Assembly: GCA_963710375.1 (NCBI GenBank)
Contig: CAVPZX010000005.1
Span: forward strand, 224,001 to 288,000
Source of the DNA: Nitrospirota bacterium
GTDB taxonomy: Bacteria; Nitrospirota; Thermodesulfovibrionia; Thermodesulfovibrionales; Dissulfurispiraceae
DNA: 64,000 nucleotides
Direction: 5' to 3'
Positions 41,823 to 60,205 of the stretch are shown here, in pieces. Each line of letters starts with the position of its first letter. Position 1 is the stretch's first letter. The notes under the pieces were generated by a model. It was given only the letters and a program-made list of their open reading frames with translations. It made no database searches and was not told the DNA's origin. Position numbers and translations under genes: made by a program.

Positions 41823-43802
41823 ATGAAGATCCTCCTTGTTTTTGACGCCTCTATAAAAGTTGAATTGTCATACAATTTCAACAAGGAATCTGTTATTGAG
41901 GGAATAGACCTCTTCCCTCTTACCGGGAATCCGGCAATAATAGATAAGGTAAAAAATACTCTCTCATCTAATGCATGCCCTGTAGAGTCCCTTAACACTG
42001 CCGATATGGTCGAGAAGCAAATTGATTATCTGAAGGGGAGGATATGCAGATGGTCAGCTGATATTGGTGAATACAGGATCAGGGAGAAAAAAATTAAGGA
42101 GTGGTTTCTCTTAAAAGGCGAGAATGTCAGTACATGGTGGTTTAGCCTGCTTTCTGAAAAGAATACGGGCAAAACAGATGCTTTTTTAAAAATGGCTCAA
42201 GTACATGCCATAGATGATATTTTAAGAAGTAAATGCTATCCCTTATGCGCCATTGCGATTTCAGATAAGGAGTTAAGAAAATCTGTTCTAAATGTTGCCC
42301 ATAAATTCGGGTCAAAAATAAGAATATTGCCGACAATCCCTCCCAAAGCCCTGAAGCTTAAAATGCAAGCTATGTTAAAGCAAATGGGGATAGCAGGTGA
42401 GCTCCTTTTGGGGATTTACATCTGGCTTCGATTTTTAAACAGAAGACATCTGGCCCTTAAGCGGTTAGGGGTTAACTGCAAACGTCTTCCAAGTCCAGAC
42501 TCTCTATTATTGGTAAGCTATTTCCCGGCTGTAGAAAAAAAACCTGCACAGAGGGGAATATTTATAAATAAATATGCTTCTGCTTTGCAAGATAAACTAA
42601 AGGAGCTTAAAATCCCGATAGTATGGGTGCTTATGTACGTTCCAATTGATGGATATAAATATAGTGATGCAGTTAATTTAACTCTTGGCTTCGCTGAGAA
42701 TGGTGAAAAGGCTTTTATAGCAGAAGAATTTTTATCAACAAAAGACGCCATTAGGGGATTATTGCTTTGGCTTAAACAAATGGTCATTAGTTTTTTTTTA
42801 TTGGGTGTTGCAAAAGAACGTTTACTGTCCGGGGTGATTGGACCTGAATGCGAACCTATTATAAAGTCATTATGGAGAGTATCTTTTTGCGGGGTTATTA
42901 ATCTTGAAGCGATACTTTACTATTTTATCTTTAAATCCGGCTTTGATCAAATTCCCGGTATAAAGGATTGTCTGTATTGGTGTGAAATGCATGCATGGGA
43001 AAAAGCCTTAAATGCTGCAAAAAATCAGAAGCATTCTTATATCCGTACGATTGGTTTTCAGCATGCTCACATTTCAAAAAACCATTTCGCCTATTTTTAT
43101 GACCCGTTAGAGTTGCGGGGAGGGCGAGGAGCTGTTGATATGCCGATGCCTGATCTGGTGGCATGCAATGGAGAATATATGTGCTCTATCCTCTCAAAGT
43201 CAGGCTATCCCTGCCTTGCCAGAGTGGAAGCCCTGAGATATCTTTATATGAATAAAATTCTACTATCCGCTCAACGGGCCAAAGGAGAAAATATCCTGTT
43301 AGTAGCAGGCTCTATCATGAAAGATGAATCCGCCACCTTGCTTTCATTTGTTCATAGCGCCTTCCCCAAGGCAAGGGAATTTGGTATATGGTTTAAAGGG
43401 CATCCTCTGTTGCCTTTTGAGCAATTGTTTGAGGAACTCGGAATTGATCTATCCGAAACAGGATATCAAATCAGGCATGATCTTATCTCAGATTTGCTTG
43501 GTGAAGCTAGGACTGTTATAGTTGGTTCAAGCGGGATTGCGATGGAGGCACTAATCTTTGGATGCGAAGTGATTGTTCCAGTCTTCCCGGATTCAATAAA
43601 TATGAATCCACTTGTTGACTTTGAAAAATATTACCATAGAGTAACCTGCATAGAAGATCTTCAATTGGTAATGGAAGAGATCTCAAAAGGTGTTCGACGG
43701 AATGACATTGACGAGACCAGGGGGCTCATTAAGCACTATTGGGAAATGGACGATGCATTGCATAACTGGGAGCGACTTTTATTGTCGAACAAGAAGGACT
43801 GA
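41823..43802 (+). CDS. Hypothetical surface-carbohydrate biosynthesis protein
   Basis: 659-aa ORF (WWFSLLSEKN, EMHAWEKAL, GFQH, VEALRY, KGHP). Its stop codon is the TGA of the first GGACTGA repeat. Confidence 0.65.
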   Translation: MKILLVFDASIKVELSYNFNKESVIEGIDLFPLTGNPAIIDKVKNTLSSNACPVESLNTADMVEKQIDYLKGRICRWSADIGEYRIREKKIKEWFLLKGENVSTWWFSLLSEKNTGKTDAFLKMAQVHAIDDILRSKCYPLCAIAISDKELRKSVLNVAHKFGSKIRILPTIPPKALKLKMQAMLKQMGIAGELLLGIYIWLRFLNRRHLALKRLGVNCKRLPSPDSLLLVSYFPAVEKKPAQRGIFINKYASALQDKLKELKIPIVWVLMYVPIDGYKYSDAVNLTLGFAENGEKAFIAEEFLSTKDAIRGLLLWLKQMVISFFLLGVAKERLLSGVIGPECEPIIKSLWRVSFCGVINLEAILYYFIFKSGFDQIPGIKDCLYWCEMHAWEKALNAAKNQKHSYIRTIGFQHAHISKNHFAYFYDPLELRGGRGAVDMPMPDLVACNGEYMCSILSKSGYPCLARVEALRYLYMNKILLSAQRAKGENILLVAGSIMKDESATLLSFVHSAFPKAREFGIWFKGHPLLPFEQLFEELGIDLSETGYQIRHDLISDLLGEARTVIVGSSGIAMEALIFGCEVIVPVFPDSINMNPLVDFEKYYHRVTCIEDLQLVMEEISKGVRRNDIDETRGLIKHYWEMDDALHNWERLLLSNKKD

Positions 43803-44040
43803 GGACTGAGTGGAACAGCAAGGCAAGGACTGAGAGCAAAAGGAAGGACTGAGGACTGAGTGCAAAGGCAAGGAAAGGACTGAGGGCAAAAGCAAGGACT
43901 GAGGACTGAGTGGAACAGCAAGGAAAGGACTGAGGGCAAAAGGAAGGACTGAGGACTGAGTGGAACGGCAAGGCAAGGACTGAGAGCAAAAGGAAGGACT
44001 GAGGACTGAGGGCAAAGGCAAGGCAAGGACTGAGGGCAGA
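43795..44040 (+). repeat. Tandem array of five ~50-bp units built from GGACTGA heptamers
   Basis: GAGGACTGAG recurs at 43801, 43851, 43901, 43951 and 44001. Each unit holds a double and a single heptamer. Confidence 0.97.
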
Positions 44041-44085
44041 AAAAGGCTTGTTAGTATGCCGCAAAATAAACTATAGTCACAATTG

Positions 44086-44115
44086 TTGACACATTCAGTC
44101 CAGGATGGGTATGCT
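44086..44115 (+). promoter_or_regulatory. Putative sigma70 promoter of the antitoxin gene
   Basis: TTGACA (44086), 18-bp spacer, TATGCT (44110), then AGGAG RBS before ATG 44130. Confidence 0.5.
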
Positions 44116-44129
44116 GATTTCAGGAGAAC

Positions 44130-44399
44130 ATGATGAAGATAGCAACAGTAAAAGAGTTTAGGGACAAGGCAACAGCCTATTTCAAGGATGAAGAACCTGT
44201 CCTTGTTACAAGACATGGAAAGGTGACAGGCCTATACCTGCCGATAGAACATCCGGAGAGCTTTCCTGAAGAACTAAGGAAAGATCTGCTTATCCGTATA
44301 GGGGAATTAGTAAGCCGGTCACTGGAAAGAAAGGTCTTGACCGAGGAAAAGATCCTTGCAGACTTCGACTCCTATAAGAAAGCTCGCCGCAGACGCTAA
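44130..44399 (+). CDS. Phd/YefM-like antitoxin
   Basis: ATVKEFRDKA...EPVLVTRHGK N-terminal DNA-binding pattern, followed by a PIN remnant. Confidence 0.75.
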   Translation: MMKIATVKEFRDKATAYFKDEEPVLVTRHGKVTGLYLPIEHPESFPEELRKDLLIRIGELVSRSLERKVLTEEKILADFDSYKKARRRR

Positions 44400-44536
44400 T
44401 GTAATTCTGTCCGATTGAATTACTCGCTCTTGCCATGAAATTGAATGTCCCTGTCTGGACCAATGACAATGATTTTAAGCATTCCGGTATCGAAGTATTT
44501 ACCACTGCAAGATTATTAAAAGCCCTTAAGTTATAA
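44356..44536 (+). pseudogene. PIN-domain toxin remnant with internal deletion
   Basis: One frame gives KLAADANVILS then a stop at 44416-44418. Another gives LLALAMKLNVPVWTNDNDFKHSGIEVFTTARLLKALKL*. These are the two ends of a PIN domain with the middle absent. Confidence 0.72.
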
Positions 44537-44578
44537 AAAGACAGAGGAATAAAAGACCAGGACCAAGGAATATTCGAA

Positions 44579-45547
44579 TTGAGAAGAGTCTTTATATCTA
44601 CTACGTCTTTCGGCAAGGAAGAGGGCAGTCCACTTGAATTGCTTAGGAATGCAGGGCTGGAGATCCATTTGAACCCGTATGGAAGAAAATTGACCGAAGA
44701 TGAAGCGATGGAGCTTCTATCTGATATGGATTATCTCATAGCAGGCACAGAACCCCTAACTGCCAGGGTGCTGAATTCCGCAAAAAAACTTAAGGTGATT
44801 TCGCGCTGCGGCGTCGGGATGGATAACGTTGATATGGAAGCTGCTTCTCTGTTAGGCATAAAGGTATTCAATACTCCTTATGGCCCCACGCAGTCTGTTG
44901 CCGAACTGACTGTTGGGTTGATGCTTGACTTACTTCGCAGAGTTACGGCCATGGACCGTGACGTGAGGAGAGGGACATGGAAAAAACGTATGGGCAATTT
45001 GCTGAATGGCAAGAGAGTCGGAATCATCGGTTTCGGGAAAATAGGACAAAAAGTTGCGGGGCTGCTCATGCCTTTCGGGGTCGAACTGTCTTATTGCGAT
45101 ATATGCGCCTGCGACTGCTCGCTGCCTGCCTCAGCGATGGCGATGGATGAGCTGCTTCCATGGGCTGACATTGTTACGCTCCACTGTTCCGCTCCTCAAT
45201 CATGTGGGGCTTTAATTAGGGCTGAGGAGTTGTCCAAGATGAAAAAAGGATCGTGGTTGGTGAATGCCTCCAGGGGGGGCTTGATTGATGAACAGGCCTT
45301 GTATAATGCTTTGAAAGATGGACATCTTGCAGGAGCAGCCCTCGATGTTTTTGACAAGGAGCCATACAGCGGACCACTTGCCGGGTTGGACAATGTCATT
45401 CTTACGCCGCATATCGGGTCGTATGCAAAAGAAGGGCGTATCGAAATGGAAATTCAGGCAGCGGAGAACCTCTTAAAAGGACTGAGTGAGAAAACAAGGA
45501 CTGAGGGTAAAACAAGGACTGAGTTAAAAGACAAGGACCAGGACTGA
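44579..45547 (+). CDS. D-isomer-specific 2-hydroxyacid dehydrogenase (phosphoglycerate dehydrogenase-like)
   Basis: SRCGVGMDNVD, GIIGFGKIG, VNASRGG, LDVFDKEP and LTPHIGS. The C-terminal tail is encoded by the repeat. Confidence 0.9.
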   Translation: MRRVFISTTSFGKEEGSPLELLRNAGLEIHLNPYGRKLTEDEAMELLSDMDYLIAGTEPLTARVLNSAKKLKVISRCGVGMDNVDMEAASLLGIKVFNTPYGPTQSVAELTVGLMLDLLRRVTAMDRDVRRGTWKKRMGNLLNGKRVGIIGFGKIGQKVAGLLMPFGVELSYCDICACDCSLPASAMAMDELLPWADIVTLHCSAPQSCGALIRAEELSKMKKGSWLVNASRGGLIDEQALYNALKDGHLAGAALDVFDKEPYSGPLAGLDNVILTPHIGSYAKEGRIEMEIQAAENLLKGLSEKTRTEGKTRTELKDKDQD

Positions 45548-45632
45548 GGACTGAGTGGAAAGGTAAAACAAGGACTGAGTTAAAAGACAAGGACCAGGAC
45601 TGAGGACTGAGTGGAAAGGCAAGGACTGAGGG
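45477..45632 (+). repeat. Forward GGACTGA array upstream of four-helix-bundle gene A
   Basis: Multiple AAGGACTGAG units. A 41-bp block is repeated at 45515-45555 and 45571-45611. Confidence 0.95.
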
Positions 45633-46040
45633 ATGAGTAAAATTGAAAGGTTTGAGGATTTGATTGCCTGGCAGAAGGCAAGGGTTTTGGTAAAAGAAAT
45701 ATACCGGATTACAAAGAACCAGTATTTTTCGAAGGATTTTGCTCTTTCTGGACAGATTCAACGTGCTGCAGTATCTGTTATGTCAAACATAGCAGAGGGT
45801 TTTGAGAGGGGTGGGCGAGCAGAGTTTCACCAATTTTTAGTTATAGCTAAGGCCTCTTGTGCTGAAGTTCGTTCGCTTTTGTATGTCGCTTTAGATATCA
45901 GATATATTACAGAAGATGAATTTAACACATTCAATAATTTAGTCGTGGAGACCGGTAGAATTATTGGAGGCATACGTGTTGCAGTGCAGAAACAAAAAGA
46001 TGGAGCTAAAACAAGGACTGAAGGTAAAGGCAAGGACTGA
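45633..46040 (+). CDS. Four-helix-bundle protein A (23S rRNA IVS protein/Avd-like family)
   Basis: [29 protein letters not shown] and FLVIAKASCAEV family signature. Confidence 0.92.
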   Translation: MSKIERFEDLIAWQKARVLVKEIYRITKNQYFSKDFALSGQIQRAAVSVMSNIAEGFERGGRAEFHQFLVIAKASCAEVRSLLYVALDIRYITEDEFNTFNNLVVETGRIIGGIRVAVQKQKDGAKTRTEGKGKD

Positions 46041-46230
46041 GGGTAAAACAAGGACTGAGGACTGAGGTAAAGGCAAGGACTGAGTGGAACAACAAGGACT
46101 GAGGACTGAGCGAAAAGAGCGAAAGAATCAGGACTGAGTGAAAAGACAAGGACTGAGGACTGAGGTAAAGGCAAGGACTGAGGGTAAAACAAGGACTGAG
46201 GACTGAGTGGAAAGGACTGAGAGACAAGGA
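46008..46230 (+). repeat. Forward GGACTGA array overlapping and following gene A
   Basis: Many CAAGGACTGAG(GACTGAG) units separated by short A/G-rich linkers. Confidence 0.95.
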
Positions 46231-46269
46231 TTACAGCGCATGTTTATTGTTACTTTGACTTTATTCTTG

Positions 46270-46516
46270 TTTTTTAAACTCAGTTCTCAGTCCTGGTCTT
46301 GTCCTTTAACTCAGTCCTATATTTTAAGAGTTTTTACGCTCAGTCCTCAGTCCTGGTCTTGTCTTTTAACTCAGTCCTATTTTTTAAGAGTTTTTAAACT
46401 CAGTTCTCAGTCCTGGTCTTGTCTTTTAACTCAGTCCTATTTTTTAAGAGTTTTTTACTCAGTCCTCAGTCCTCAGTCCTTGTTTTTATTAGTTTTAACT
46501 CAGTCCTTGGTTTTTT
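46270..46516 (-). repeat. Inverted (TCAGTCC) array with 60-bp periodicity
   Basis: CTCAGT(C/T)CTCAGTCCTGGTCTTGTC(C/T)TTTAACTCAGTCCTAT at 46279, 46339 and 46399, plus further heptamers up to the next ATG. Confidence 0.96.
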
Positions 46517-47170
46517 ATGATTAAAGCGACTATATTCGACTTTGACGGCGTGATTCTCGAATCTGCGGGTATCAAAACGAAGGCCTTTGAAAGGCTTTTT
46601 GCCGGTGATTATCCTGATAAGGCAGAAGAAATCCTGGCTTACCATATTCGCAATGCCGGCATATCCAGGTATGTCAAATTCGATTATATATATGAGCATA
46701 TCCTTAAACAACCGCTTATGCCTGAAGAAAAAGAAGAACTTGGGAAGAAATTCTCCGATATAGTATTTGACGAAATCCTGCATACGCCTTTCGTAGCCGG
46801 TGCGGTGGAGCTGTTAGAGGGAAGCAGGAACGACTTGCTGTTCTTCATCGCTTCCGGCACTCCTGAAGAAGAGCTTCACCGCATACTAAGCCTTCGGCGC
46901 ATTGCTCATCTGTTTCGCGAGGCGCACGGTTCGCCTAAAAAAAAGCACGAGATCATACTCGATATAATGCATAGGTACGCGCTGCAGAAAGAGGAAGTTG
47001 TGTTCGTGGGCGATGCCGAAAGTGACATGAAAGCCTCAGAGCAGGCCGGTGTTGCCTTTATTGCACGGATGACTGCCGAGAATCTGGAGCAGATACAGCA
47101 TTGTCGGTGGAAAATCCCGGACCTCTCCGCACTGGAAACCGTTCTGCACGATATCGGGCGACTCAGGTGA
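46517..47170 (+). CDS. HAD-family hydrolase
   Basis: IFDFDGVILES, IASGTP, GSPKKK and FVGDAESD motifs. Confidence 0.9.
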   Translation: MIKATIFDFDGVILESAGIKTKAFERLFAGDYPDKAEEILAYHIRNAGISRYVKFDYIYEHILKQPLMPEEKEELGKKFSDIVFDEILHTPFVAGAVELLEGSRNDLLFFIASGTPEEELHRILSLRRIAHLFREAHGSPKKKHEIILDIMHRYALQKEEVVFVGDAESDMKASEQAGVAFIARMTAENLEQIQHCRWKIPDLSALETVLHDIGRLR

Positions 47171-47196
47171 AAAAATAAATAGGCTAAAGAGCTTGT

Positions 47197-47637
47197 ATGG
47201 ATAAGATAAAGATTGACGGCATTCTTCTTACTCCTTTAAAAATCATACCGCATCCCCAAGGCGACATTTTTCACATGATGAAAAAAAGCGACGCAGGATT
47301 TTGCGGATTTGGTGAGGCATATTTTACTACCGTAAAATTTGGGGAGATCAAAGCATGGAGGAAACATTCGAGGATGACCCTTAACCTGGCAGTGCCTGCC
47401 GGAGAAGTTAAGTTTGTGATGTTTGACGACAGAAAGGGGAGTAAAACAAAGGGGTCGTTTTTTGAAGTGATATTGTCTCCCCTGAATTATAAAAGACTGA
47501 CCATTCCTCCCGGCATCTGGACCGGGTTCAAAGGTTTGAGTGACGGGCTGAACCTTGTCCTGGATGTCGCCGACCTGGAACATGACCCTTCAGAAACAGA
47601 AAGAGCGGACATTGGCAAGTTTGCTTATGGGTGGTAG
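47197..47637 (+). CDS. RmlC-like cupin (sugar 3,5-epimerase family)
   Basis: GFGEAYF, IKAWRKH and RLTIPPGIWTGF motifs. Confidence 0.82.
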   Translation: MDKIKIDGILLTPLKIIPHPQGDIFHMMKKSDAGFCGFGEAYFTTVKFGEIKAWRKHSRMTLNLAVPAGEVKFVMFDDRKGSKTKGSFFEVILSPLNYKRLTIPPGIWTGFKGLSDGLNLVLDVADLEHDPSETERADIGKFAYGW

Positions 47638-47643
47638 TCAAGT

Positions 47644-48585
47644 TTGAAAATTCTGATAACAGGCGGGTTGGGTTATCTGGGATCATGGCTAACCGATTTC
47701 TTTTGCAGGCATGACCATGAAGTTCATGTTTTATCAAGTTCGGACAATAAGCACATCAAGGATATAAACTACCATTTTATTAATGCTGACATAACTGCTG
47801 CGAACGAATTGGCTGCGAAATTAAGAACGAATTTTGATTGCTGCATACACGCGGCAAGCCTCAATGATTCTTTTGTGAAAGATTATCCTCAAAGGGCACT
47901 AAATGTAAATGCTTTGGGTACAAGAAATGTTCTGGCGGTTCTTGCTGATAAGGGCATAGGAAAATTTGTATATTTAAGCACATTTCATGTATATGGGAAG
48001 GACAATAGTAACATTAATGAGAACTCTCCTTTAAATCCGTCTAATGATTATGGATCAACGCATTTGTTCGGCGAGTATTATGTCAAACAGTTCTGGAACA
48101 CGCATCGCGTTCCTTTTACGATATTAAGGCCTACAAACGGCTATGGCGCCCCCAGGCAACCAGATTCTACTAAGTGGTACCTGGTAATAAACGACCTCGC
48201 AAGGTCCGCATACGAAAGAGGCGAGATAATATTAAGTTCCAACGGCCAGGCAAGCAGGGACTTTATCTGGCTTGGAGACGTTTGCAATATTATAAATAAT
48301 ATTTTACAGACGGATAAGACATGCGGGGAAGTGTTCAATGTTTCCTCCGGGAAAATTTACAGGATTATGGATATTGCCAATATAGTGAAAAATGTTTATG
48401 AAAGGAGATATGGCAGGGCTATTGAGATACGTGTCAGAAAAGACGACAAGACTGTGTATGGAGCCGATCTGCATATCAGCAACACTAAGCTCAGGTCTTA
48501 TATAGATTTCGAAATACACGAAAGAATTCCTGAAGAAGTGGAAAATATTTTTACCCTTCTGGAGGAGTCTGCTTTAAAATTATGA
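47644..48585 (+). CDS. NAD-dependent epimerase/dehydratase/reductase
   Basis: ITGGLGYLGS, STFHVYG and RDFI. YGSTH replaces the usual YxxxK. Confidence 0.85.
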   Translation: MKILITGGLGYLGSWLTDFFCRHDHEVHVLSSSDNKHIKDINYHFINADITAANELAAKLRTNFDCCIHAASLNDSFVKDYPQRALNVNALGTRNVLAVLADKGIGKFVYLSTFHVYGKDNSNINENSPLNPSNDYGSTHLFGEYYVKQFWNTHRVPFTILRPTNGYGAPRQPDSTKWYLVINDLARSAYERGEIILSSNGQASRDFIWLGDVCNIINNILQTDKTCGEVFNVSSGKIYRIMDIANIVKNVYERRYGRAIEIRVRKDDKTVYGADLHISNTKLRSYIDFEIHERIPEEVENIFTLLEESALKL

Positions 48586-49406
48586 GGCCTCTTGTTTCAA
48601 TCGTTACTCCCATGTTCAATGCCGAACCTTTCATAGCGGAAACCATCGAATCTGTATTGGCCCAGACTTATGAGAATTGGGAAATGCTTGTTGTCGATAA
48701 TTGTTCAACCGACAGAAGCAGGGAAGTTGTCCTCGATTATGCGAACAGGGATACACGGATCAGGCTGGTCGAACTCGATTTCAATTCAGGTGGGCCTGCC
48801 CGGCCAAGGAATATCGGCATACGGCACGCACTTGGCGACTATCTTGCCTTTTTGGATGCCGATGATATCTGGAAGCCGGAAAAACTTGAACGCCAGGTGC
48901 GCCATATGCTCGGGCATCCTGAGGTCGGGCTTTTATATTCGCCATGTCTCCCCACGCTGGGAGGAAAAATTAAGAAACAAAGTCCCAGGCGCTGGGCAAT
49001 GAAAGCCGGCCATATTTTTGAGGCGCTCTTTCTGTCAGATAATTTTATTGTATGTTCAAGTGTTCTGCTAAGGAAAGGATCCGCTATACCGCTCGAATTT
49101 GATGAGGATAGCCGAATGGTCACAGTTGAGGACTTCGACCTTTGGCTGCGAATCTCCCAGGTTGCGGTCATCGATTTCATTGCCGAACCTCTGGTTATCT
49201 ACCGGTTGCATGAGCGAAATCTCAGTTACGGAGTGACGCAGTATGGTCGCCGGATTCTGTATATGGTTGGAAAGTGGAGAGTTCGCACTTATCCGGCACT
49301 CATTTTTGCAAAGTATGGGCGGCTGATTGTAACGGTCTCCGTGATGTGCCTTATCTTTTTGATGGAAAAGGTAAGGGGGTTGATCCATAGTCGGCGTGCC
49401 TATTGA
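48582..49406 (+). CDS. Glycosyltransferase family 2
   Basis: VSIVTPMFN, VDNCSTD, FLDADD and EDFDLWLR motifs. Confidence 0.92.
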   Translation: MRPLVSIVTPMFNAEPFIAETIESVLAQTYENWEMLVVDNCSTDRSREVVLDYANRDTRIRLVELDFNSGGPARPRNIGIRHALGDYLAFLDADDIWKPEKLERQVRHMLGHPEVGLLYSPCLPTLGGKIKKQSPRRWAMKAGHIFEALFLSDNFIVCSSVLLRKGSAIPLEFDEDSRMVTVEDFDLWLRISQVAVIDFIAEPLVIYRLHERNLSYGVTQYGRRILYMVGKWRVRTYPALIFAKYGRLIVTVSVMCLIFLMEKVRGLIHSRRAY

Positions 49407-49421
49407 CCTCCGGTTCAGAAT

Positions 49422-50624
49422 ATGAAACATGACGCTAAAGAGCTAAAGCCCAGAGTGTGCGTAGTATCGCCCCTTTATCATCCATCTCTGGGAGGCCTGG
49501 GAAGGCAAGGGCAACGTCTAACCGAAGAACTGGCGGAAGATGGCGTGAGTATTTTCGTGATAGCGCGAAGGATGAAAGGCATGCCACGCGCTGAATTCAG
49601 CCCGAAAGTGAAAGTCTACCGGGCGTGGTCCCTTAAGCCTTATCTCCACACCTTTGAGGACATCACGCTTACGAACGTTCTTGTTTCCCTCTCCTTTTGC
49701 ATAAGCTGCGCAATATTGCTCATCCGCAAAAGGAAAGAGTATGATATCGTTCATTTCCACGGCGCAAGTCTCCCGCTTGTTTTTAATGTGCCGCTTCTGA
49801 AGTGTATCGGCAAAAAAATCATCGCTCTGGTAGTCAGCAGCGGCTTTGGCACAGAAGCGGGGTCTCTTCGAGGGAAACATTTCGGGCTGGGCAACCTGCT
49901 AATCAAAATACTCAGGGCTGTGGACATCTTTGTTGCTATGACCACGGAAATCGAGAACGGCCTGTTATCAGATGGGTTTTCTGGAGCCAGGATCGTAAGA
50001 ATCCCCAACTTTATCGATTTTAATGCTTTTTCGCCTGTCAGTCCGGAGATAAAAAGAAAAATGCGTACAGCAGCGAATATGGAGAGTGCAATTATAGTGG
50101 TATTTACCGGCAGGCTTATCAAGTGCAAGGGAGTGGATGTGCTTCTCGAAGCCTGGACTGATGTTGCAAAACGCCATAGCGATGTGCGCTTGTTTATAGT
50201 TGGAGATGGTCTCATGAAGACGGAGTTGAGTGAGCTGGCAGCACAATACGGCATACTGCAGTCAGTTGTATTTGTCGGCTTTTCCACCGCGGTCAAAGAT
50301 TTTCTTAATATGGCTGATATCTTTGTGTTTCCCTCTCTGCACGAGGGCATGCCCAACTCGCTTCTGGAAGCAATGGCATGCAGGCTCCCGGTTGTGGCGA
50401 CGAACATAGGCGGTGTCACTGATTTTGTAAAAGATGGAGAGAACGGCTTGCTTGCAGAGCCTGGAGATTCTGTCGGCCTTGCCAGGGGGATAGACAGACT
50501 TATTGAAAATCAAGAACTTTCGGAACATATTGCAAATAATGGATACGAGACGATAAGAAAAAGCTACAGCCTCGACTGCATTGCTCAGCGATATGCCGAT
50601 TTATACAATAGTATGGCCATATGA
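49422..50624 (+). CDS. Glycosyltransferase family 4
   Basis: GRLIKCKG and PSLHEGMPNSLLEAMA motifs. Confidence 0.92.
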   Translation: MKHDAKELKPRVCVVSPLYHPSLGGLGRQGQRLTEELAEDGVSIFVIARRMKGMPRAEFSPKVKVYRAWSLKPYLHTFEDITLTNVLVSLSFCISCAILLIRKRKEYDIVHFHGASLPLVFNVPLLKCIGKKIIALVVSSGFGTEAGSLRGKHFGLGNLLIKILRAVDIFVAMTTEIENGLLSDGFSGARIVRIPNFIDFNAFSPVSPEIKRKMRTAANMESAIIVVFTGRLIKCKGVDVLLEAWTDVAKRHSDVRLFIVGDGLMKTELSELAAQYGILQSVVFVGFSTAVKDFLNMADIFVFPSLHEGMPNSLLEAMACRLPVVATNIGGVTDFVKDGENGLLAEPGDSVGLARGIDRLIENQELSEHIANNGYETIRKSYSLDCIAQRYADLYNSMAI

Positions 50625-52109: not shown

Positions 52110-52150
52110 TTGTTATCGCATGAAAAAATGGGCAGAATGAGGGGATTATT

Positions 52151-52774
52151 ATGGGAACGTTTTGGAATGTGAGCAGTATAAAAGGGACTACCATAAATTT
52201 TATCGACACTCCTGTCATTGGAACAGCTTCATTTCTGATTCCTCTATATATCTTCCTGTTTGCTATCGCAGCAGTTATGTTCTTGATGATGAGTCGGAAC
52301 CACCTGCAAGTTAAAAGGCATGCAGTTGTGAGAGCTTTGCTTTTGGCCTTTGTCACAGCAGCCGTGTTGTTTGCGGCAAGAATGGATTATGGGTGGTATA
52401 AGATGTGGCAGCTTGACAGTAAGAATCCGCAGGGAAGCCTTGATGAAAGTATTGCTATGGATCTGCGGACAGTAAACTCATTTGTAGAGGCATTCAAGAA
52501 AGCAGTGCCTTTGTCCGAAAAAGTCGCAATTATTACAGACGATTCTTACGACAGGATGGTGCTGAAATACTACCTGCTGCCGATAAGAATTTCGGAGGAT
52601 GCAAATGATATTATTGTTTTCAGCAACAGGCATGTGGTTTTTGATACAGGACGTAATGCGCTTCTCGAAGATGGAAATGTCGTAGAGAATAACGTCAGCC
52701 TTGTTGCATCTTATGAAGGAAAGTTTTTTATATTCAGGAAAAAGGACAAGGACAAAAACAGGACTGAGGACTGA
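52151..52774 (+). CDS. Hypothetical membrane protein
   Basis: Two TM segments and a YYLLP motif. The C-terminus and stop come from the GGACTGA repeat. Confidence 0.65.
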   Translation: MGTFWNVSSIKGTTINFIDTPVIGTASFLIPLYIFLFAIAAVMFLMMSRNHLQVKRHAVVRALLLAFVTAAVLFAARMDYGWYKMWQLDSKNPQGSLDESIAMDLRTVNSFVEAFKKAVPLSEKVAIITDDSYDRMVLKYYLLPIRISEDANDIIVFSNRHVVFDTGRNALLEDGNVVENNVSLVASYEGKFFIFRKKDKDKNRTED

Positions 52775-52818
52775 GTGGGAAGGACTGAGGAATAAAAACG
52801 AGGACTGAGGACTGAGTG
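52742..52818 (+). repeat. Short forward GGACTGA array forming a gene junction
   Basis: Five GGACTGAG units spanning the stop at 52774 and the GTG start at 52816. Confidence 0.93.
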
Positions 52819-54222
52819 AAAATCCTGATGCTTATTTATGCTTTTTTCTTGCCGACCGCGACGGGCTTCCTGTTTGTCAGCTATTTTTCCCGTTGCGATA
52901 ATAAAGAAAGTTTTTTTGAAAGACTATTTTTGGGGTTCGGTCTGGGTATGGGTATGCTCACTTTTGAGATGTTCATTACCGCCCTCTTGAAAATTAATTT
53001 TTCTCTGTTCGTCATATCACTAATGCAAATATTGACTGCGGCTTTATTTGCATGGCTGCTCTTCAGGTCCAAATATTCCCTGAAGGAAGTTCTCAATGTG
53101 TCGCCATTCCGCGATAAAATAACGTCAATTTTTAAAGTGTCCGGAGTGCAGTCTTTTTTCGTTTTGTTAGTAACGATCTGGATTATGCTCAAGTTCTTCT
53201 TTGTTCTTTATGAGAGCGCGACCTGGCCGGCATTCGGATGGGACAGCCTGGAAAATTGGAGTTCAGGGGCCAAATATTTCTATTACGTGAAAGGCTTGAT
53301 GCTCGATCATGGAAGCGAGCACTTTTTCGGCAAAGGATACAGGACCTTTTTGAATTATCCCCTGCATATACCATTAATGCAGGTTTGGGTTTCAGTATGT
53401 CTTGGAAACATCAATGAAGCATATATGAAATACTGGAACGTGGTTTATTTCATCAGCGTTGTCGCTTTGGTTTATTTTGCAGTGAGAAGAGAAGCTTCTC
53501 AGGTTATCGCCATCCTGGCAGCTTTTTTCCTTTCCTCAGTGCCGCTGCTTACATACCATGCAATCGATGCGTATGCGGATTTGCCTCTGAGTTATTACGC
53601 GCTCGCCACCGCCATTTGCTTTCGGAGATACATGGAAAAGTCTGAGAAACAAAGAGATGAAAATTATGGATTCCTGGTCCTCATTGGGGTATTTTCAGCT
53701 TTATGCATGTGGACGAAATTAGAAGGCATTCTGTTCGCTCTCGCTTTCAGTGCGACCCTGTTACTGTATCTTCTGCTGAAAAGGAGTTCATACAGGAATT
53801 TTATAAAAAGCCTTTTTTTCTATTCTTTACCGATTGGCATAATAGGAATATCGTGGTTCACTTTTTTGACTTTAAACGGTGTAAAAGGCCGCAGTATACT
53901 CGCCTTTGGTCTTCATTTTGAGGTTATTCCTGTGATCCTGAAACAGATATTTTTCTCGGCAAATTTTAATATTATTTTCCTGTTTTCCCCGCTAATTATT
54001 CTATTGGGCATCAGAACAATTTTGCATTCTGACTTAAAATATCTGCTTGCCCACCTATTAATGGTGATGTTGATGTTCCTTTTCATTTATATCGCAACGA
54101 ATAATTATATATTTGCAATGAATTTGACAGCGGTAAATCGCAGCGTACTGACTTTTATCCCCGCGATGTATTATATTAGCGCCCTGATAGCAGCACATAT
54201 GCTGGGAAAAGAAAAGGACTGA
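52816..54222 (+). CDS. Polytopic membrane glycosyltransferase-like protein (GT-C/ArnT-like)
   Basis: Many TM helices with GWDSLENW, NYPL, YADLPL and WTKLEG motifs. Confidence 0.65.
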   Translation: MKILMLIYAFFLPTATGFLFVSYFSRCDNKESFFERLFLGFGLGMGMLTFEMFITALLKINFSLFVISLMQILTAALFAWLLFRSKYSLKEVLNVSPFRDKITSIFKVSGVQSFFVLLVTIWIMLKFFFVLYESATWPAFGWDSLENWSSGAKYFYYVKGLMLDHGSEHFFGKGYRTFLNYPLHIPLMQVWVSVCLGNINEAYMKYWNVVYFISVVALVYFAVRREASQVIAILAAFFLSSVPLLTYHAIDAYADLPLSYYALATAICFRRYMEKSEKQRDENYGFLVLIGVFSALCMWTKLEGILFALAFSATLLLYLLLKRSSYRNFIKSLFFYSLPIGIIGISWFTFLTLNGVKGRSILAFGLHFEVIPVILKQIFFSANFNIIFLFSPLIILLGIRTILHSDLKYLLAHLLMVMLMFLFIYIATNNYIFAMNLTAVNRSVLTFIPAMYYISALIAAHMLGKEKD

Positions 54223-54400
54223 GAAGGAAAGGCAAGGACTGAGCAAGAGACAAAGGGACTGAGGACTGAGAAGGAAAGGCAAGGACTGAGGACTGAGCAA
54301 AAAAGACAAGGACTGAGGACTGAGTGAGTAAAATTGAAAGGTTTGAAGATTTGATTGCGTGGCAAAAATCAAGACTTTTGGTAAACCTATGAGGACTGAG
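54214..54400 (+). repeat. Forward GGACTGA array flanking a truncated four-helix gene
   Basis: AAGGACTGAG units at 54214-54324 and one more at ~54391-54400. Confidence 0.94.
54324..54392 (+). pseudogene. 5' remnant of a four-helix-bundle gene (copy of gene A)
   Basis: GTG frame translates to [22 protein letters not shown], against [22 protein letters not shown] at 45633. Confidence 0.9.
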
Positions 54401-54418
54401 AGGAAAGAAGACGTCAAA

Positions 54419-55204
54419 ATGACTCAGTCCTCAGCACTCGGCCCTCAGTCCTTGTCTCTCAGTCCTCAATCCTCGGCCCTCAGCCCTTGTTTTAAGAAGT
54501 TGTCCATTGTAATGCCTGTTTATAATGAAGGCACCTACGTCCATCAAATACTGAATAAGATTAAGCAGGTTACACTTGACAATGAGATCGAAAAAGAAAT
54601 CATTATCGTCAATGACGCCTCAACTGACGACACTGCGGACGCAATTAAGGCATATATCAATAACAACCCCGAACTCAATATCCGGTATTTTAAACATGAA
54701 ACGAACCAGGGAAAAGGCGCGGCATTGCATACCGGGATAAAGGAAGCAACCGGTGATTTTTTGATAATACAGGATGCTGATCTGGAATACGATCCTTTTG
54801 AGTACAATAAGCTGTTGGAGCCTGTTTTAAAAGGTCATGCCGATGTAGTATATGGCTCACGTTTTATCGGCGGACACCCTCACAGAATTCTTTTTTTCTG
54901 GCATACGGTGGGTAACAGATTTCTTACATTTCTTTCGAATGCGTTTAATAATCTTAACCTTACCGATATGGAAACCTGCTATAAGCTCTTTAAGACCGAC
55001 ATTATCAAAAAGATCGAGTTAAAGGAAAAGCGCTTTGGTTTTGAGCCGGAAGTTACGGCTAAGATAGCGAAGATACCGGGCATCAGAATTTACGAGGTTG
55101 GAATATCTTATTACGGAAGGACTTATGCTGAAGGCAAAAAGATCAACTGGAAAGACGGGCTGAAAGCGCTTCATTGCATTTTTAAATATGGTTTGTGGCC
55201 ATAA
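54419..55204 (+). CDS. GT2 polyprenol-phosphate glycosyltransferase (DPM1-like)
   Basis: [39 protein letters not shown] and FGFEPE. The start is uncertain and the N-terminal extension is repeat-derived. Confidence 0.88.
54421..54490 (-). repeat. Degenerate inverted (CTCAGTC) heptamer array
   Basis: ctcagtc-ctcagca-ctcggcc-ctcagtc-cttgtct-ctcagtc-ctcaatc-ctcggcc-ctcagcc in exact 7-nt phase. Confidence 0.9.
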
Positions 55205-55392
55205 AATGCACGGAACGGGCTTAGTGCTTCAATTCATAAATACGGTTGCACATTTTGAACAAATTCAGGTTTAATAAAAATAAAGGATTTATTGATTAGT
55301 CCCTCGCAATGTCCGCAAAGAAACACTCAGAGACAGTTAAAATACATTTGCCGCTGCAGATTGCATGCGCATGGTAATAAGAGGAGGTTTTA

Positions 55393-56925: not shown

Positions 56926-56936
56926 GAACATATAGG

Positions 56937-57023
56937 CGCAAAGAGCATAGCGCATAGGGCAAAGGGCGAAACAAAGAAAAAAAGACCGCAAAGAGCATAG
57001 CGCATAGGGCAAAGGCAAAGAGG
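56937..57023 (+). repeat. Forward GCAWAGV heptamer array upstream of four-helix-bundle gene B
   Basis: CGCAAAGAGCATAGCGCATAGGGCAAAGG at 56937-56965 and 56987-57015 (50-bp spacing). Confidence 0.94.
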
Positions 57024-57401
57024 GTGAAATTCAGGTTTCAGGATTTAGAGATATGGCGAATGGCAATAGAGATTGCTAATGAGCTTTTTGATATTGCTGA
57101 CAAACTTGAGGCAAAACGGTTATATCGTTTTGCTGAACAATTGCGCGGTGCAGGGATGAGTATGTCTAACAATATTGCTGAAGGTTCAGGGAGCGGCTCA
57201 AAGACTGAATTTAGGAATTTCTTGAATATAGCAAAGCGCAGCACTTTTGAAAATGTAAATATTATGATTCTCCTGAACATGAGGAGGCTGATAGATGATA
57301 ATATGCTGGAGAAGATGCTTGAACGACTTGATATGCTTTGTCGTAAGATAACAAACTTTCAGAAAACATTGATCGCAAAGAGCAAAGGGCAAAGTGCATA
57401 G
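57024..57401 (+). CDS. Four-helix-bundle protein B (23S rRNA IVS protein/Avd-like family)
   Basis: FQDLEIW, EQLRGAGMSMSNNIAEGSG and FLNIAKRSTFE. The last codons and TAG stop are repeat-derived (57375-57401). Confidence 0.92.
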   Translation: MKFRFQDLEIWRMAIEIANELFDIADKLEAKRLYRFAEQLRGAGMSMSNNIAEGSGSGSKTEFRNFLNIAKRSTFENVNIMILLNMRRLIDDNMLEKMLERLDMLCRKITNFQKTLIAKSKGQSA

Positions 57402-57475
57402 AACGAAAAACAACAAACAGAGGACAAAAAAATGCAGCCATCTGTCTTGTTTGCATTTGACGCCTTCGGCTGTTA

Positions 57476-57550
57476 CCCTATGCTCCTTGCTCTTTGCCCT
57501 ATGCGCTTTGTCTTTTGCGCTTTGCCCTATGCCCTATGCCCTTTGCGCTT
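57476..57550 (-). repeat. Inverted (CTWTGC) heptamer array downstream of gene B
   Basis: About ten CCTATGC/CTTTGC units, the reverse complement of the upstream array. Confidence 0.93.
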
Positions 57551-58222
57551 AAGACTATTGCGTGGGATGTGGATGATGTTTTGAATGATTTGATGCAGTC
57601 GTGGTTTGAGCTGAAATGGCTGAAAGACCATCCTGAATGCAAAATCAAATACGAAGAACTTGCAGAAAATCCGCCCCACAGGATATTAGGGGTTGATGTC
57701 CATTCATATCTCGAATCCCTCGATGAGTTCAGATTGTCGCCTTTGTATCTGGAAATGAGACCTGTAGAAGAAGTGATGGAGTGGTTTAATAAAAATGGGA
57801 ATAGTTTTCGCCATGTGGCGTTGACTGCTGTTCCGCTCATTGCGGCTCCAGTATCTGCGCACTGGGTATTTAAGCACTTTGGGCCATGGATAAGGACATT
57901 TCATTTCATACCTTCCAGGAGGAAGGGGCAATGCATTCAGGAATACGATAGTGATAAGGGAGCATTCTTGAAATGGATAGAAAAGGCCGATGTTTTCCTG
58001 GATGACAATCCTGCAAATATACAGGCTGCAGAAAGCTCCGGCGTTATGGGCATTATAATACCTCGCCCCTGGAATAAGGCAACGGCGCAGAGAGCAAAGA
58101 GCATAGGGCAAAGAGCAGAGAGCAAAGGGCAGAGAGCAGAGGGCAAAGGGCAAAGGGCAGGGGGCAAAGGGCAAAGGGCAAAGTCAATTACCGAAGCTCT
58201 AAAAAATTTAAATGGTTTATAG
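57536..58222 (+). CDS. HAD-superfamily 5'(3')-nucleotidase-like protein
   Basis: IAWDVDDVLND, LTA, FLDDNPAN and PRPWN motifs. The start is uncertain and the candidate ATG lies inside the inverted repeat array. Confidence 0.78.
   Translation: MPFALKTIAWDVDDVLNDLMQSWFELKWLKDHPECKIKYEELAENPPHRILGVDVHSYLESLDEFRLSPLYLEMRPVEEVMEWFNKNGNSFRHVALTAVPLIAAPVSAHWVFKHFGPWIRTFHFIPSRRKGQCIQEYDSDKGAFLKWIEKADVFLDDNPANIQAAESSGVMGIIIPRPWNKATAQRAKSIGQRAESKGQRAEGKGQRAGGKGQRAKSITEALKNLNGL
58087..58184 (+). repeat. 14 in-phase GCANAGR-type heptamers inside a CDS
   Basis: GCAGAGA GCAAAGA GCATAGG GCAAAGA GCAGAGA GCAAAGG GCAGAGA GCAGAGG GCAAAGG GCAAAGG GCAGGGG GCAAAGG GCAAAGG GCAAAGT. Confidence 0.96.
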
Positions 58223-58240
58223 GTCGGATTTATCTATTTT

Positions 58241-58289
58241 TTTGCCTTATGCCTTTAACACTATGCTCTATGCTCTTTGCGCTTTGCTC
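58241..58289 (-). repeat. Inverted heptamer array before the ThDP-enzyme RBS
   Basis: tttgcct-tatgcct...ctatgct-ctatgct-ctttgcg-ctttgct, ending just before AAGGAGGT. Confidence 0.85.
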
Positions 58290-58306
58290 ATTAAGGAGGT
58301 GTTGAG

Positions 58307-60133
58307 GTGATCAAATTATCTGATTACGTAATTAAATTCGTTTCTGATATCGGCGTAAAGCATATTTTTATGCTGCCGGGCGGCGGTTGTATGCATCTTG
58401 TGGACTCAGTGGGCAAAAACAAAAAAATCGAATTTGTGGGATGCCTGCATGAACAAGCGGCAGTGATTGCCGCAGACGGGTATGCACAATACAACGGTAA
58501 TGCCGGAGTTGCACTCGTAACCACAGGGCCGGGAAGCACCAATGCAATAACAGGTGTTGCCGGGGCGTGGATCGATTCAACGCCGGTCATGATTTTATCA
58601 GGCCAGGCCAAGCGGAAAGACCTTCTTGCCGGAAAAGGCGTTCGCCAGATGGGCGTTCAGGAAGTGGATATCGTCTCTCTGGTTAAACCAATAACAAAGT
58701 ATGCCGTCACTGTGCTTGAGCCTGAAAGCATTCGATATCATCTCGAAAAAGCTTATCATACGGCCTGTCATGGCCGCCCTGGTCCTGTGTGGCTGGATAT
58801 CCCCCTTGACGTACAGGGGTCCGTAATCGATGAAACAAAGCTGCGCGGGTTTAATCCTTCAGATGATGAATTCGCCCTATGCCCTATGCCCCATGCCCTT
58901 TGCCCTTCTACATTGCCGGAGTTGGTCGATAAGGTTGTTTCCATGCTGAACAATGCTGAACGTCCGGTGATTCTGGCCGGCCGGGGCATACGCCTTTCAA
59001 AGGCAATGGCGGAGTTCTGCAGTGTGATAGAATCGTTGAAGATCCCTGTTTTGACGACCTGGAGACTGGCGGATTCATTGCCTGAAGACAGTGAAGTTTT
59101 CTTTGGCAGGCCCGGCTCCATCACTTCCAGGGGGGCTAATTTTGTTCAACAGAATGCCGATTTTATTCTGGTTATCGGGGCACGACTCGATCTGCCGCAG
59201 GTCGGACACAGTTACGCGAATTTTGCGCGCGCCGCCAGGAAGGTTGTAGTTGATATTGATGGAAATGAAATTAAAAAGATTGACACTAAAATCGATCTGC
59301 CAATAGTAAGCGGCGCAGGAGAGTTCCTTAAAGAGCTTATCAATAAATTAAATAAGGTAAAACTCAGGGACATATCAGCTTGGACATCAAGATGCAAAGC
59401 GTGGAAGGAAAAATATCCGGTTATACTGCCGGAATACCTTGAACCTGCGGGCTATGTCAATACTTATGCCCTGATAGACGTGCTTTCAGAAGTTTTGACC
59501 AGTGATGACATTATCGTTCCGGGAAGCTCGGGCAGTTGCGCTGAAATTACTCCTCAAGCCTTCAGGGTCAAAAAGGGACAGAGAATTATAAATTCACCTG
59601 GGTTGGGGTCAATGGGATATGGCCTTCCGCAGAGTATCGGGGTCTGTCTGTCCGGGGGCAGTAAGAGGACTGTATGTATCATAGGCGATGGTGGACTTCA
59701 GCATAACATTCAGGAACTCGAAACCTTAAAAAGACTCAATATCCCCGTTAAGCTTTTCGTCCTCAACAACAACGGTTATGCAGCTATCAGGGGCACACAC
59801 AAGCGCTTTTTTGAGGGGCGACTGGTCTGCTGTGATCCATCGAGCGGACTCACACTGCCTGATGCATGCAAGATCGCCTCTGCATATGGCCTGAAAACGG
59901 TCAGGATATCTGATCAGAGGAACTTAAGAGAAGAAGTCGTTAATGTCCTTAACATGGAAGGCCCGGTTGTATGCGATGTGATGGTTGATCCTGACTTGCA
60001 GATGGCCCCAAAGCTTTCATCAATGGCAAGACCGGACGGGTCGATGGTTTCCAAGCCGCTTGAAGACCTCTGGCCTTTTCTAGACAGGGAAGAATTCAGG
60101 GCGAACATGATAATTCCTCCACTGGAGGATTAA
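58307..60133 (+). CDS. Thiamine-diphosphate-dependent enzyme (acetolactate-synthase-like, YerE-type context)
   Basis: HEQAA, TTGPGSTN, GRPGPVWLDIPLDVQ, GSMGYGLP and GDGG...NNNGY motifs. Confidence 0.9.
   Translation: MIKLSDYVIKFVSDIGVKHIFMLPGGGCMHLVDSVGKNKKIEFVGCLHEQAAVIAADGYAQYNGNAGVALVTTGPGSTNAITGVAGAWIDSTPVMILSGQAKRKDLLAGKGVRQMGVQEVDIVSLVKPITKYAVTVLEPESIRYHLEKAYHTACHGRPGPVWLDIPLDVQGSVIDETKLRGFNPSDDEFALCPMPHALCPSTLPELVDKVVSMLNNAERPVILAGRGIRLSKAMAEFCSVIESLKIPVLTTWRLADSLPEDSEVFFGRPGSITSRGANFVQQNADFILVIGARLDLPQVGHSYANFARAARKVVVDIDGNEIKKIDTKIDLPIVSGAGEFLKELINKLNKVKLRDISAWTSRCKAWKEKYPVILPEYLEPAGYVNTYALIDVLSEVLTSDDIIVPGSSGSCAEITPQAFRVKKGQRIINSPGLGSMGYGLPQSIGVCLSGGSKRTVCIIGDGGLQHNIQELETLKRLNIPVKLFVLNNNGYAAIRGTHKRFFEGRLVCCDPSSGLTLPDACKIASAYGLKTVRISDQRNLREEVVNVLNMEGPVVCDVMVDPDLQMAPKLSSMARPDGSMVSKPLEDLWPFLDREEFRANMIIPPLED
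58871..58905 (-). repeat. Five inverted heptamers within the ThDP-enzyme CDS
   Basis: ttcgccc-tatgccc-tatgccc-catgccc-tttgccc, encoding FALCPMPHALCP. Confidence 0.88.
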
Positions 60134-60150: not shown

Positions 60151-60188
60151 TTGACAGCGAGTGACATTTGTGTACATAATAAAGTCAC
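60151..60188 (+). promoter_or_regulatory. Putative TA promoter with overlapping operator
   Basis: TTGACA (60151) and CATAAT (60175). The inverted pair GTGAC (60161)/GTCAC (60184) surrounds the palindrome TGTACA. Confidence 0.55.
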
Positions 60189-60205
60189 AGATGGAGGATA
60201 AAGCT

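Follow-up and report, generated by a model that had tools for sequence, protein, structure and literature searches.

PF05635 four-helix-bundle proteins as probable readers of the tandem repeats that flank their own genes

Two genes that encode four-helix-bundle proteins, here called gene A and gene B, are each enclosed by arms of a different tandem repeat in a stretch of Nitrospirota DNA. The comparison of loci of this kind has revealed that single amino acids of the proteins shift with single letters of the repeat unit across phyla, so that the proteins likely read their repeat words directly. On balance, we lean towards the view that the genes are acquired cassettes, situated between arms of their own repeat, and that the protein likely reads the repeat, each subunit of a predicted ring of five taking one unit, and would thereby give rise to new arms of that word at other places in the genome.

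The window that we have analysed is the whole stretch of 64,000 nt at positions 224,001-288,000 (forward strand) of contig CAVPZX010000005.1, from the assembly GCA_963710375.1 of a Nitrospirota bacterium (Dissulfurispiraceae); the host genome is 98.8% complete and consists of nine contigs. The pattern GGACTGAGGACTGAG (one mismatch allowed) has 22 matches in the window, all within 43796-54472, with 0.00 expected, and GCAWRGVGCAWRGVGC has 20, all within 56938-58903, with 0.01 expected. Tandem Repeats Finder (TRF) lists no array in the window before 43793, in agreement with the sequence-only reading, which had seen none in the first 43 kb. The separate territories that it had assigned to the two repeat families exist inside the window, but not genome-wide: arrays of the A type (AGGACTG) also occur at C5:211-218 kb and C2:825 kb, and arrays of the B type at six further places on contigs C5 and C8. 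The arrays are no assembly artefact, since most of the stretch, with its arrays, recurs in short-read contigs from four other runs, for which 10 single-letter differences are listed. Joints that skip gene B were rejected as traces of excision, since they contain letters belonging to other repeat sites (C8:187 kb, C5:322 kb).

That two four-helix-bundle genes lie amid different heptamer arrays, as had been read from the sequence, is confirmed by these motif counts and by the profile scores of the proteins: 123.8 bits (A) and 86.8 bits (B) for PF05635, with a cut-off of 33.8, and 111.3 and 82.7 for TIGR02436, with a cut-off of 24. The two proteins share 32% identity over 90 residues, and the profile search found no domain in either besides PF05635, plus a weak bAvd match; the scores for the Avd models are below cut-off (27.8 of 80 and 29.4 of 40). 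The predicted structure of protein A (pLDDT 96) has helices at residues 11-27, 36-59, 62-88 and 94-122, and its solved kin, 2GSC (E 9e-25) and 2RLD (E 2e-10), comprise five chains each; by analogy with 2GSC (PMC4990558), the family protein would be a homopentamer. The window has no Rfam match, and neither gene is located inside a 23S rRNA gene; their neighbours are sugar-pathway enzymes. With the query that was used, no relative of protein A was found in viral contigs.

Gene A and the A-type repeats of the window are arranged as follows:
43793..44038, + strand: forward-only AGGACTG array with a 50-nt higher-order period, spanning the stop of gene 41823-43802 (TRF, motif matches)
45477..45630, + strand: upstream forward AGGACTG arm (TRF, motif matches)
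45633..46040, + strand: gene A, four-helix-bundle protein (PF05635/TIGR02436) of 135 aa with Arg62 and Gly112 (profile searches, predicted structure)
46007..46230, + strand: further forward AGGACTG array that overlaps gene A at its end (TRF, motif matches)
46265..46515, - strand: reverse-complement AGGACTG arm with a 60-nt higher-order period, adjoining the HAD hydrolase start at 46517
52760..52816, + strand: forward-only AGGACTG array that fills a gene junction (TRF, motif matches)
54207..54324, + strand: forward AGGACTG array behind a membrane-protein gene (TRF, motif matches)
54324..54392, + strand: second, truncated copy of gene A in which 22 codons are followed by a stop (88.5% over 61 nt, 85% over 20 aa)
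54423..54490, - strand: reverse AGGACTG arm, forming the in-frame start of a glycosyltransferase gene (TRF)

The upstream arm of gene A lengthens the preceding 2-hydroxyacid dehydrogenase gene and stops at the ATG of gene A, while the final codons of gene A are themselves made up of repeat units. The upstream arm and the arm at 46265..46515 have in common a long spacer motif of about 37 nt, and the arms of gene A are predicted to fold into a long stem. The truncated copy at 54324-54392, overlooked in the sequence-only reading, is the sole remnant of a family gene found in the genome.

Gene B and the B-type repeats, of unit AG(C/A/G)GCA(T/A), occupy the following positions:
56936..57019, + strand: upstream forward B-type arm (motif matches)
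57024..57401, + strand: gene B, four-helix-bundle protein (PF05635/TIGR02436) of 125 aa (profile searches)
57476..57550, - strand: reverse B-type arm that takes the place of the start region of an NT5C-like gene (TRF, motif, relatives)
58078..58183, + strand: forward B-type array, an in-frame insertion in the NT5C-like gene before its native last helix (TRF, relatives)
58246..58288, - strand: reverse B-type arm that follows the NT5C-like stop and precedes the ribosome-binding site of a TPP enzyme gene (motif matches)
58874..58906, - strand: B-type array in reverse orientation only, read in frame within a variable loop of the TPP enzyme (TRF, relatives)

Comparison with relatives places the native coding sequence of the NT5C-like gene between two arms, and the array in the TPP enzyme adds about 7 residues with respect to most relatives. 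The surroundings of gene B are also predicted to form a long stem (z -5.4). At the gene B junction, five relatives have neither the gene nor the arms; no target-site duplication was seen there, in a comparison with relatives that are only 45-82% identical in protein, while a short overlap, AAGG, occurs at one junction. The order of a purine-rich forward array followed by its reverse complement at the start of the next gene, reported from the sequence as occurring four times, is indeed found at 46.0-46.5, 54.2-54.5, 56.9-57.55 and 58.1-58.3 kb.

The host genome contains six family genes, all of them with arms (6/6) and with six different units. Among the relatives of the two genes, the A motif is present on both sides of 61 of the 75 A loci and of none of the 71 B loci, and the B motif on both sides of 45 of the 71 B loci and of none of the 75 A loci (0.0 in shuffles for either motif); the motif patterns for these counts were drawn up after the arm data had been viewed, and de novo matrices agree with them. 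A period of 8 likewise tracks one subfamily in genomes of different phyla. The proposal that each protein is paired with its own repeat is thus borne out, the repeat type tracking the protein clade across 15 phylum labels; the broad family tree is a quick tree with long branches. The covariation of repeat with protein phylogeny, which had been suggested as a check, extends to single residues and single bases.

In the A clade, Arg62 occurs together with G at unit position 3 in 27/30 cases, and 27/29 of the loci with G3 have Arg62 (p 1e-13); Gly112 occurs together with G at unit position 7 in 58/58, versus 2/11. Both associations recur in held-out loci (Arg62/G3: 3/5 versus 0/10, p 0.022; Gly112/G7: 13/13 versus 0/3, p 0.0018), and the direction of the code is the same in 8/8 phyla that hold both states. 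Among all columns, compared over 111 loci, columns 62 and 112 rank at the top (corrected z 11.4 and 10.0, versus 3.7 and 5.7 for the columns that follow). Host GC was rejected as the source of the code, as it does not differ. Arg62 is insufficient for G3, with exceptions in 3/30 cases and in 2/5 of the held-out loci, and some loci of the sister clade (L026, L262) break the Gly112 rule. Covariation in the B clade involves several columns together and is indistinguishable from descent. As the tree gives only one to two well-supported independent pairs, it is not proven that the code is phylogenetically independent. The covariation of residues with bases is best read as direct recognition of the repeat by the protein. 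The residue code and the link between protein family and repeat appear to be new: no paper tying the family to repeats outside rRNA was found, in a search that stopped short of subscription papers, including those on the original Leptospira intervening sequence (IVS) and on STRR. The cyanobacterial STRRs are a comparable class of repeats.

Matching arms are not confined to family genes. A regular-expression search gives 165 sites over all nine contigs, including ribosomal-protein operons and coding loops, and gene-less arm pairs, mostly of four units, occur at more than 100 junctions genome-wide, in the forward-then-reverse order in 73/73 pairs. The loops between the arms are unique, A-rich and then T-rich. 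Mobility of the family gene is suggested by 75 upstream neighbours that are spread over 54 families, by the empty sites and by the truncated local copy. In three coding sequences, 34/35 exact units are out of stop phase. At the same junctions in relatives, the arms are missing or of another type, and relatives carry the same genes without family gene and without arms, i.e. as empty sites. These observations bear on the suggestion that protein and repeat are a small selfish unit that seeds repeats locally: of the ideas in the sequence-only reading it is the best fit, except that the seeding would extend over the whole genome instead of staying local.

A different role, as a TRAP-like regulator, would have the ring bind the purine-rich mRNA arm, compete with the forward/reverse stem and set termination, processing or translation at the junctions, for the benefit of the host. 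The cognate matching and the residue code suit any direct binding, and in the related Avd pentamer, bound RNA has its bases flipped into the crevices between protomers (10.1101/2023.10.23.563531); moreover, forward arms are located at stops, reverse arms at starts, sometimes in place of a ribosome-binding site, and long stems are predicted, as around gene B. Against such a role, the sense strand has no G-U bias in five array types, the sole hint of G-U asymmetry being an AGGTCA variant with 12 occurrences in reverse arms; the arms of one site pair no better, and are no more alike, than arms of different sites (type C, p 0.07); sites between co-directional genes are not enriched (117/156 versus a background of 73%, with crude gene calls); and arms occur inside coding loops and at junctions where relatives have no arms or arms of another type. 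We therefore consider a TRAP-like regulator unlikely, and the earlier idea that RNA pairing controls a giant operon finds no support in arms that are genome-wide and inside coding loops, free of G-U bias, not co-adapted, and missing along with the gene from relatives. The lack of an RNA-pairing signature, together with the lack of a reverse transcriptase, points instead to a cognate reader that likely seeds its repeat.

Could the gene be a passenger, as in 23S rRNA, with arms that loop it out of the transcript for cutting by RNase III, protein and repeat being merely co-inherited without recognition and gene-less pairs being relics of deletion? In Coxiella, the stem of the 23S IVS contains heptamer repeats, and RNase III cleaves the IVS (PMC4990558); genes A and B both lie in the loop of a long predicted stem, and one deletion relic exists. 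Co-inheritance, however, predicts no residue-base code that repeats in held-out loci; a single gene remnant stands against 165 array sites, with unique, compositionally ordered loops, so that deletion was rejected as the origin of the gene-less pairs; and in gene-bearing loci the arms are no more complementary within than across loci. Such a passenger seems very unlikely to us. Nor were there near-identical copies with terminal repeats that match each other, as in an insertion sequence or MITE: the loops are unique and the arms of a site not co-adapted.

Within one taxonomic family, the seven carriers of an A-clade gene have 16-81 matches to the A pattern, while the 43 others have 0-16, with a median of 1; the p of 1e-5 for this comparison is overstated, because carriers and non-carriers are kin. 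One non-carrier (G183) has a degenerate gene copy. Ten genomes have 15-49 matches to the B pattern and no family gene with B arms; two of the ten (100% and 84% complete) have zero PF05635 matches, no convergent family clade was found among 53 matches that could account for the B arrays, and in one genome (G190) no small gene was seen by eye within 14 array regions. The host genome itself has three array types without a matching gene. Such plentiful arrays in genomes without a matching gene, which count against a protein that seeds its repeat, the absence of a catalytic partner from what was found, and the residue code, which would be equally expected, favour an antidote, in which the repeats arise by host replication slippage and spread by themselves, and the proteins are maintained, with retuning at positions 62 and 112, because they bind and neutralise the arms. 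This account, which we regard as distinctly improbable, leaves unexplained one word beside one protein clade over 15 phylum labels and varied sites, arms that are mostly of four units and always forward-then-reverse, and an array count that rises with gene presence in one family.

Returning to the protein as a reader that seeds its own repeat, we infer that it binds directly, by way of the loop that precedes helix 3 and of the distal half of helix 4, and that it would act in trans on DNA, on either strand, rather than on mRNA. Because the protein has no known catalytic domain, the writing would fall to a polymerase or repair enzyme of the host, brought in by the bound ring. The genome yielded no such partner: RVT_1 has no match there (whence a diversity-generating retroelement (DGR) or retro-mobility was rejected) and the single Y1 transposase has unrelated inverted repeats (whence a RAYT partner was rejected). 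Each arm would be made separately, the purine strand first, which the shared spacer motif and the predicted long stem of the arms around gene A speak against; the arms would persist only where they are tolerated, i.e. at gene ends, in surface loops and in stop-free frames, and would outlive the gene.

The arrangement would be an analogue of RAYTs with their REPINs, minus the transposase. In the literature on that system that was accessible to us, the likeness lies in a gene flanked by its own repeat type and in gene-less inverted pairs genome-wide; unlike RAYTs, proteins A and B have no HUH/Y1 domain, their arms are tandem 6-9-mers rather than single palindromes, the loops are unique, and the family gene turns up in many locations over different phyla, whereas for RAYTs mostly vertical descent and a single copy are described. 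With the Avd of DGRs (10.1101/2023.10.23.563531), they may share a related pentameric barrel that acts as a non-catalytic polymerase helper with base-specific RNA contacts per protomer, but the Avd models score below cut-off and no reverse transcriptase accompanies them. The ORF-bearing 23S rRNA IVSs (S23p; Coxiella, Leptospira) have in common the protein family, the enclosure by inverted repeats and tandem heptamers at the start codon; the available text of PMC4990558 calls the protein expendable and proposes no recognition of the repeat by it. The cassettes of genes A and B differ in lying between or inside protein-coding genes, in having six paralogues with six words, and in the gene-less sites; rRNA IVSs would be a special case that landed in 23S rRNA. 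The heptamers of Xanthomonas and Nostoc (PMC4692102) and the TAACTGA of Beggiatoaceae (PMC4679880) likewise form inverted pairs at junctions, with the purine-rich strand after the stop, a preference for four units, a patchy distribution across phyla and no evident mechanism; both papers, in their main texts as available, suggest G-quadruplexes or binding of S1/Csp/Csr, and the term "four helix" is absent from them.

A bolder and doubtful extension is that PF05635 proteins act as programmable writers of repeats without being catalytic themselves: the ring would hold a nascent 3' end, and the residue code would set the word of 6-9 bases to be added, four to five times over, by a host polymerase; two such ends would then join purine strand first, like a head-to-head telomere fusion. 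As a bacterial, protein-specified analogue of telomerase, this one family would underlie the heptamer repeats known from cyanobacteria, Xanthomonas and Beggiatoaceae, as well as the rRNA IVS stems.

Direct reading of the repeats would tie together two loose ends, namely a very large family with solved structures and no function, and the over-represented heptamer repeats of bacteria, and would explain the origin of the commonest unexplained short repeats in bacterial genomes. The code gives sharp predictions (Arg62 for G3, Gly112 for G7) and suggests a tandem-repeat reader that is small and could be reprogrammed; should the proteins seed repeats as well, they would supply new DNA at gene junctions and in-frame insertions in enzymes, with no need for a transposase of their own.

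The sugar-modifying enzyme genes of the window, all co-directional, form one long cluster, and two further genes encode proteins that are 32% identical to each other and related to two solved structures, 2GSC and 2RLD:

Gene A, 45633-46040, four-helix-bundle protein, PF05635/TIGR02436 profile matches
Gene B, 57024-57401, four-helix-bundle protein, PF05635/TIGR02436 profile matches

Each gene is accompanied by arms, i.e. forward (purine-rich) and reverse-complement tandem arrays of one short word, AGGACTG for gene A and AG(C/A/G)GCA(T/A) for gene B. The doubled A word has 22 matches in the window, at 43.8-54.5 kb (0.00 expected by chance), and the doubled B word has 20, at 56.9-58.9 kb (0.01 expected by chance), while no array was found in the window before 43793; within the window, the separate stretches and the array-free first 43 kb described by the sequence-only reading are thus borne out. 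A second, truncated copy of gene A is located at 54324-54392. Most of the window is reproduced by contigs from four other runs (two studies), one of which may be the source sample; a membrane protein gene (50621-52109) is split at ~51169, where all four runs with cover have one base fewer, so that an error in the window sequence probably accounts for the split. Directly behind the first A array, at 44130-44535, a small gene, which matched no family at the thresholds applied and which we take to be Phd/YefM-like, is followed by an apparent broken PIN-domain fragment and then by degenerate A-like units (~44537-44570); an intact pair of Phd-like antitoxin and PIN-domain toxin lies within the sugar cluster at 60161-60918.

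The pairing of each protein with its own repeat had been proposed from the window, with covariation of repeat and protein phylogeny as the check; this comparison has now been run, and the repeat type follows the clade. The flanks were long enough in 75 of 79 relatives of A and 71 of 80 of B. Two or more copies of the A motif stand on each side of the gene in 61/75 of these A loci and in none (0/71) of the B loci; for the B motif this is so in 45/71 B loci and in none (0/75) of the A loci (shuffles 0.0 for both), while sister clades carry other words with other periods. The A loci are spread over 15 phylum labels, and the upstream neighbours of the 75 belong to 54 families and in most cases share the strand. 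A strict inverted-word test is passed by 19 of 36 family members from six genomes, versus 3 of 70 control positions; among the members that fail it, many show degenerate arms by eye. The units of all clades can mostly be written as starting with AG or GG. Longer members with a C-terminal suffix domain (L321, L323, L325, L345, L348, L355) mostly have no arms detectable by a periodicity test, and at the same response-regulator gene junction two related genomes (L009, L026) carry different family clades with different words.

The genome of the window (G000) holds six family genes above the cut-off, every one of them preceded by forward purine-rich arms and followed by reverse-complement ones, in six different units of 6, 7 or 8 bases. 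Regular expressions built from these units and three further ones (the expression for the 8-base type missed arrays that were seen) have located 235 arrays at 165 sites, versus none in two codon-shuffled copies; most sites are gene-less pairs that fill a gene junction, from a stop to a ribosome-binding site, many gene-less arms being preceded by AAAA(A/G)..C. Three array types, with 1-6 arrays each, have no matching gene. No reverse transcriptase was found in this genome, and its one Y1/RAYT-like transposase (L304, G000:C2:220024-220350), considered as writer of the arms, was rejected: it is bounded by an inverted repeat of its own that has no relation to these arms.

The three genes around gene B are adjacent in five relatives, without gene B and without arms. 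At a Nitrospiraceae junction that carries an A-clade cassette (gene plus arms) in some genomes, ten others, chosen for having no match, comprise seven empty junctions, two gene-less pairs of another word and one degenerate cassette. In the ribosomal-protein operon of G000, arm pairs occupy three of five junctions examined, the first of which measures at most 21 bases in 18 of 29 relatives and holds different words in others. Within one family, A-pattern matches number 16-81 in seven carriers of an A-clade gene versus 0-16 in 43 others. The link between gene presence and array count is weaker for B: four close carriers have 12-68 matches and one distant carrier has 2, while ten genomes with 15-49 matches yielded no gene with B arms, for which gene loss, or the absence of a repeat-bounded contig from the assembly, might account. 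One nested site (L358, G190:C9:5923-6284) lies in a genome without a PF05635 match and has an outer B-type pair around arms of two or more other words.

In three types, all 73 gene-less pairs have the forward arm first and the reverse arm second, with a modal arm length of four units and unique loops that are A-rich, then T-rich. Their arms are no more complementary within a site than between sites, and the same holds generally for gene-bearing loci (p above 0.1, three sets), gene A of the window being an exception, with a long spacer motif common to its two arms. Arm composition is alike on the sense and the antisense strand, without a G-U excess. Single arms also occur in frame in coding loops, in either orientation, e.g. 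in a TPP enzyme and in an NT5C-like gene, the latter with native coding sequence between a forward and a reverse arm. The 8-base word of the family gene at C5:208 kb lies in frame, in both orientations, inside the next two sugar enzymes (L005 / L207:1434-4109). A further case is the following:

Three tandem paralogous TPR membrane-protein genes, L207:4101-11092 (G000:C5:211100-218091), in-frame arrays of up to ~200 bases

Here A, B and 8-base words occur at the same loops, differing between paralogues and stacked at one site; exact A units lie outside the stop phase in 34 of 35 cases, versus 19 of 27 neighbouring variants in the stop phase, the pattern to be expected if selection on the host protein screens the insertions. 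That the strands are symmetrical, the arms independent and turnover fast, and that insertions lie in coding sequence, leads us to favour a self-spreading system that acts on DNA over the control of this operon that had been suggested, and makes an RNA regulator unlikely; an antidote role of the proteins we regard as somewhat less probable still. The earlier alternative of a selfish unit is retained in its self-spreading part, with seeding that would be genome-wide rather than local.

Published work describes heptamers that form part of the stem in the 23S intervening sequence of Coxiella (PMC4990558), junctions with heptamer pairs in inverted orientation, biased toward four units (PMC4692102), TAACTGA repeats (PMC4679880) and RNA binding by Avd (10.1101/2023.10.23.563531), and mentions the PF05635/TIGR02436 family only in passing (PMC10053308, PMC10910872); in main texts, with subscription journals barely covered, we found no link between this family and repeats outside rRNA. 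The gene-plus-arms system differs from 23S rRNA intervening sequences in their defining location, and from diversity-generating retroelements, RAYTs and MITEs in their defining features; in its working, it most resembles RAYT with REPINs.

Two residues of the A clade (numbered in protein A) covary with bases of the word. In 69 distinct loci, each with at least four readable units, G at word position 3 accompanies Arg62 in 27 of 30 Arg62 loci (27 of the 29 G3 loci), and G at position 7 accompanies Gly112 in 58/58, versus 2/11 otherwise; in 16 held-out loci, fetched afterwards, the proportions are 3/5 versus 0/10 (one locus omitted for ambiguous register) and 13/13 versus 0/3. Exceptions to both rules occur. 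Columns 62 and 112 stand far above every other column across 111 loci (both sets included), and host GC is equal between residue states. On the best tree, built with the two columns removed, Arg62 and G3 change 15 times each, and all eight phyla having both states agree in direction; well-supported branches carry only 1-2 independent pairs, so that the formal tree test is without power. Passive co-inheritance of protein and repeat appears improbable to us. Several columns of the B clade covary jointly, with nothing beyond descent.

In a predicted model, residue 62 starts helix 3 and residue 112 sits past the midpoint of helix 4; from the bundle topology, both may face one pocket. Direct reading of the word by the protein is the simplest account of these sequence associations, and we lean, by a modest degree, towards proteins that both read and seed their words. 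Two sister paralogues of one genome (L185 and L186), one with Ala112 and a T7 word and the other with Gly112 and a G7 word, offer a natural contrast for binding assays.
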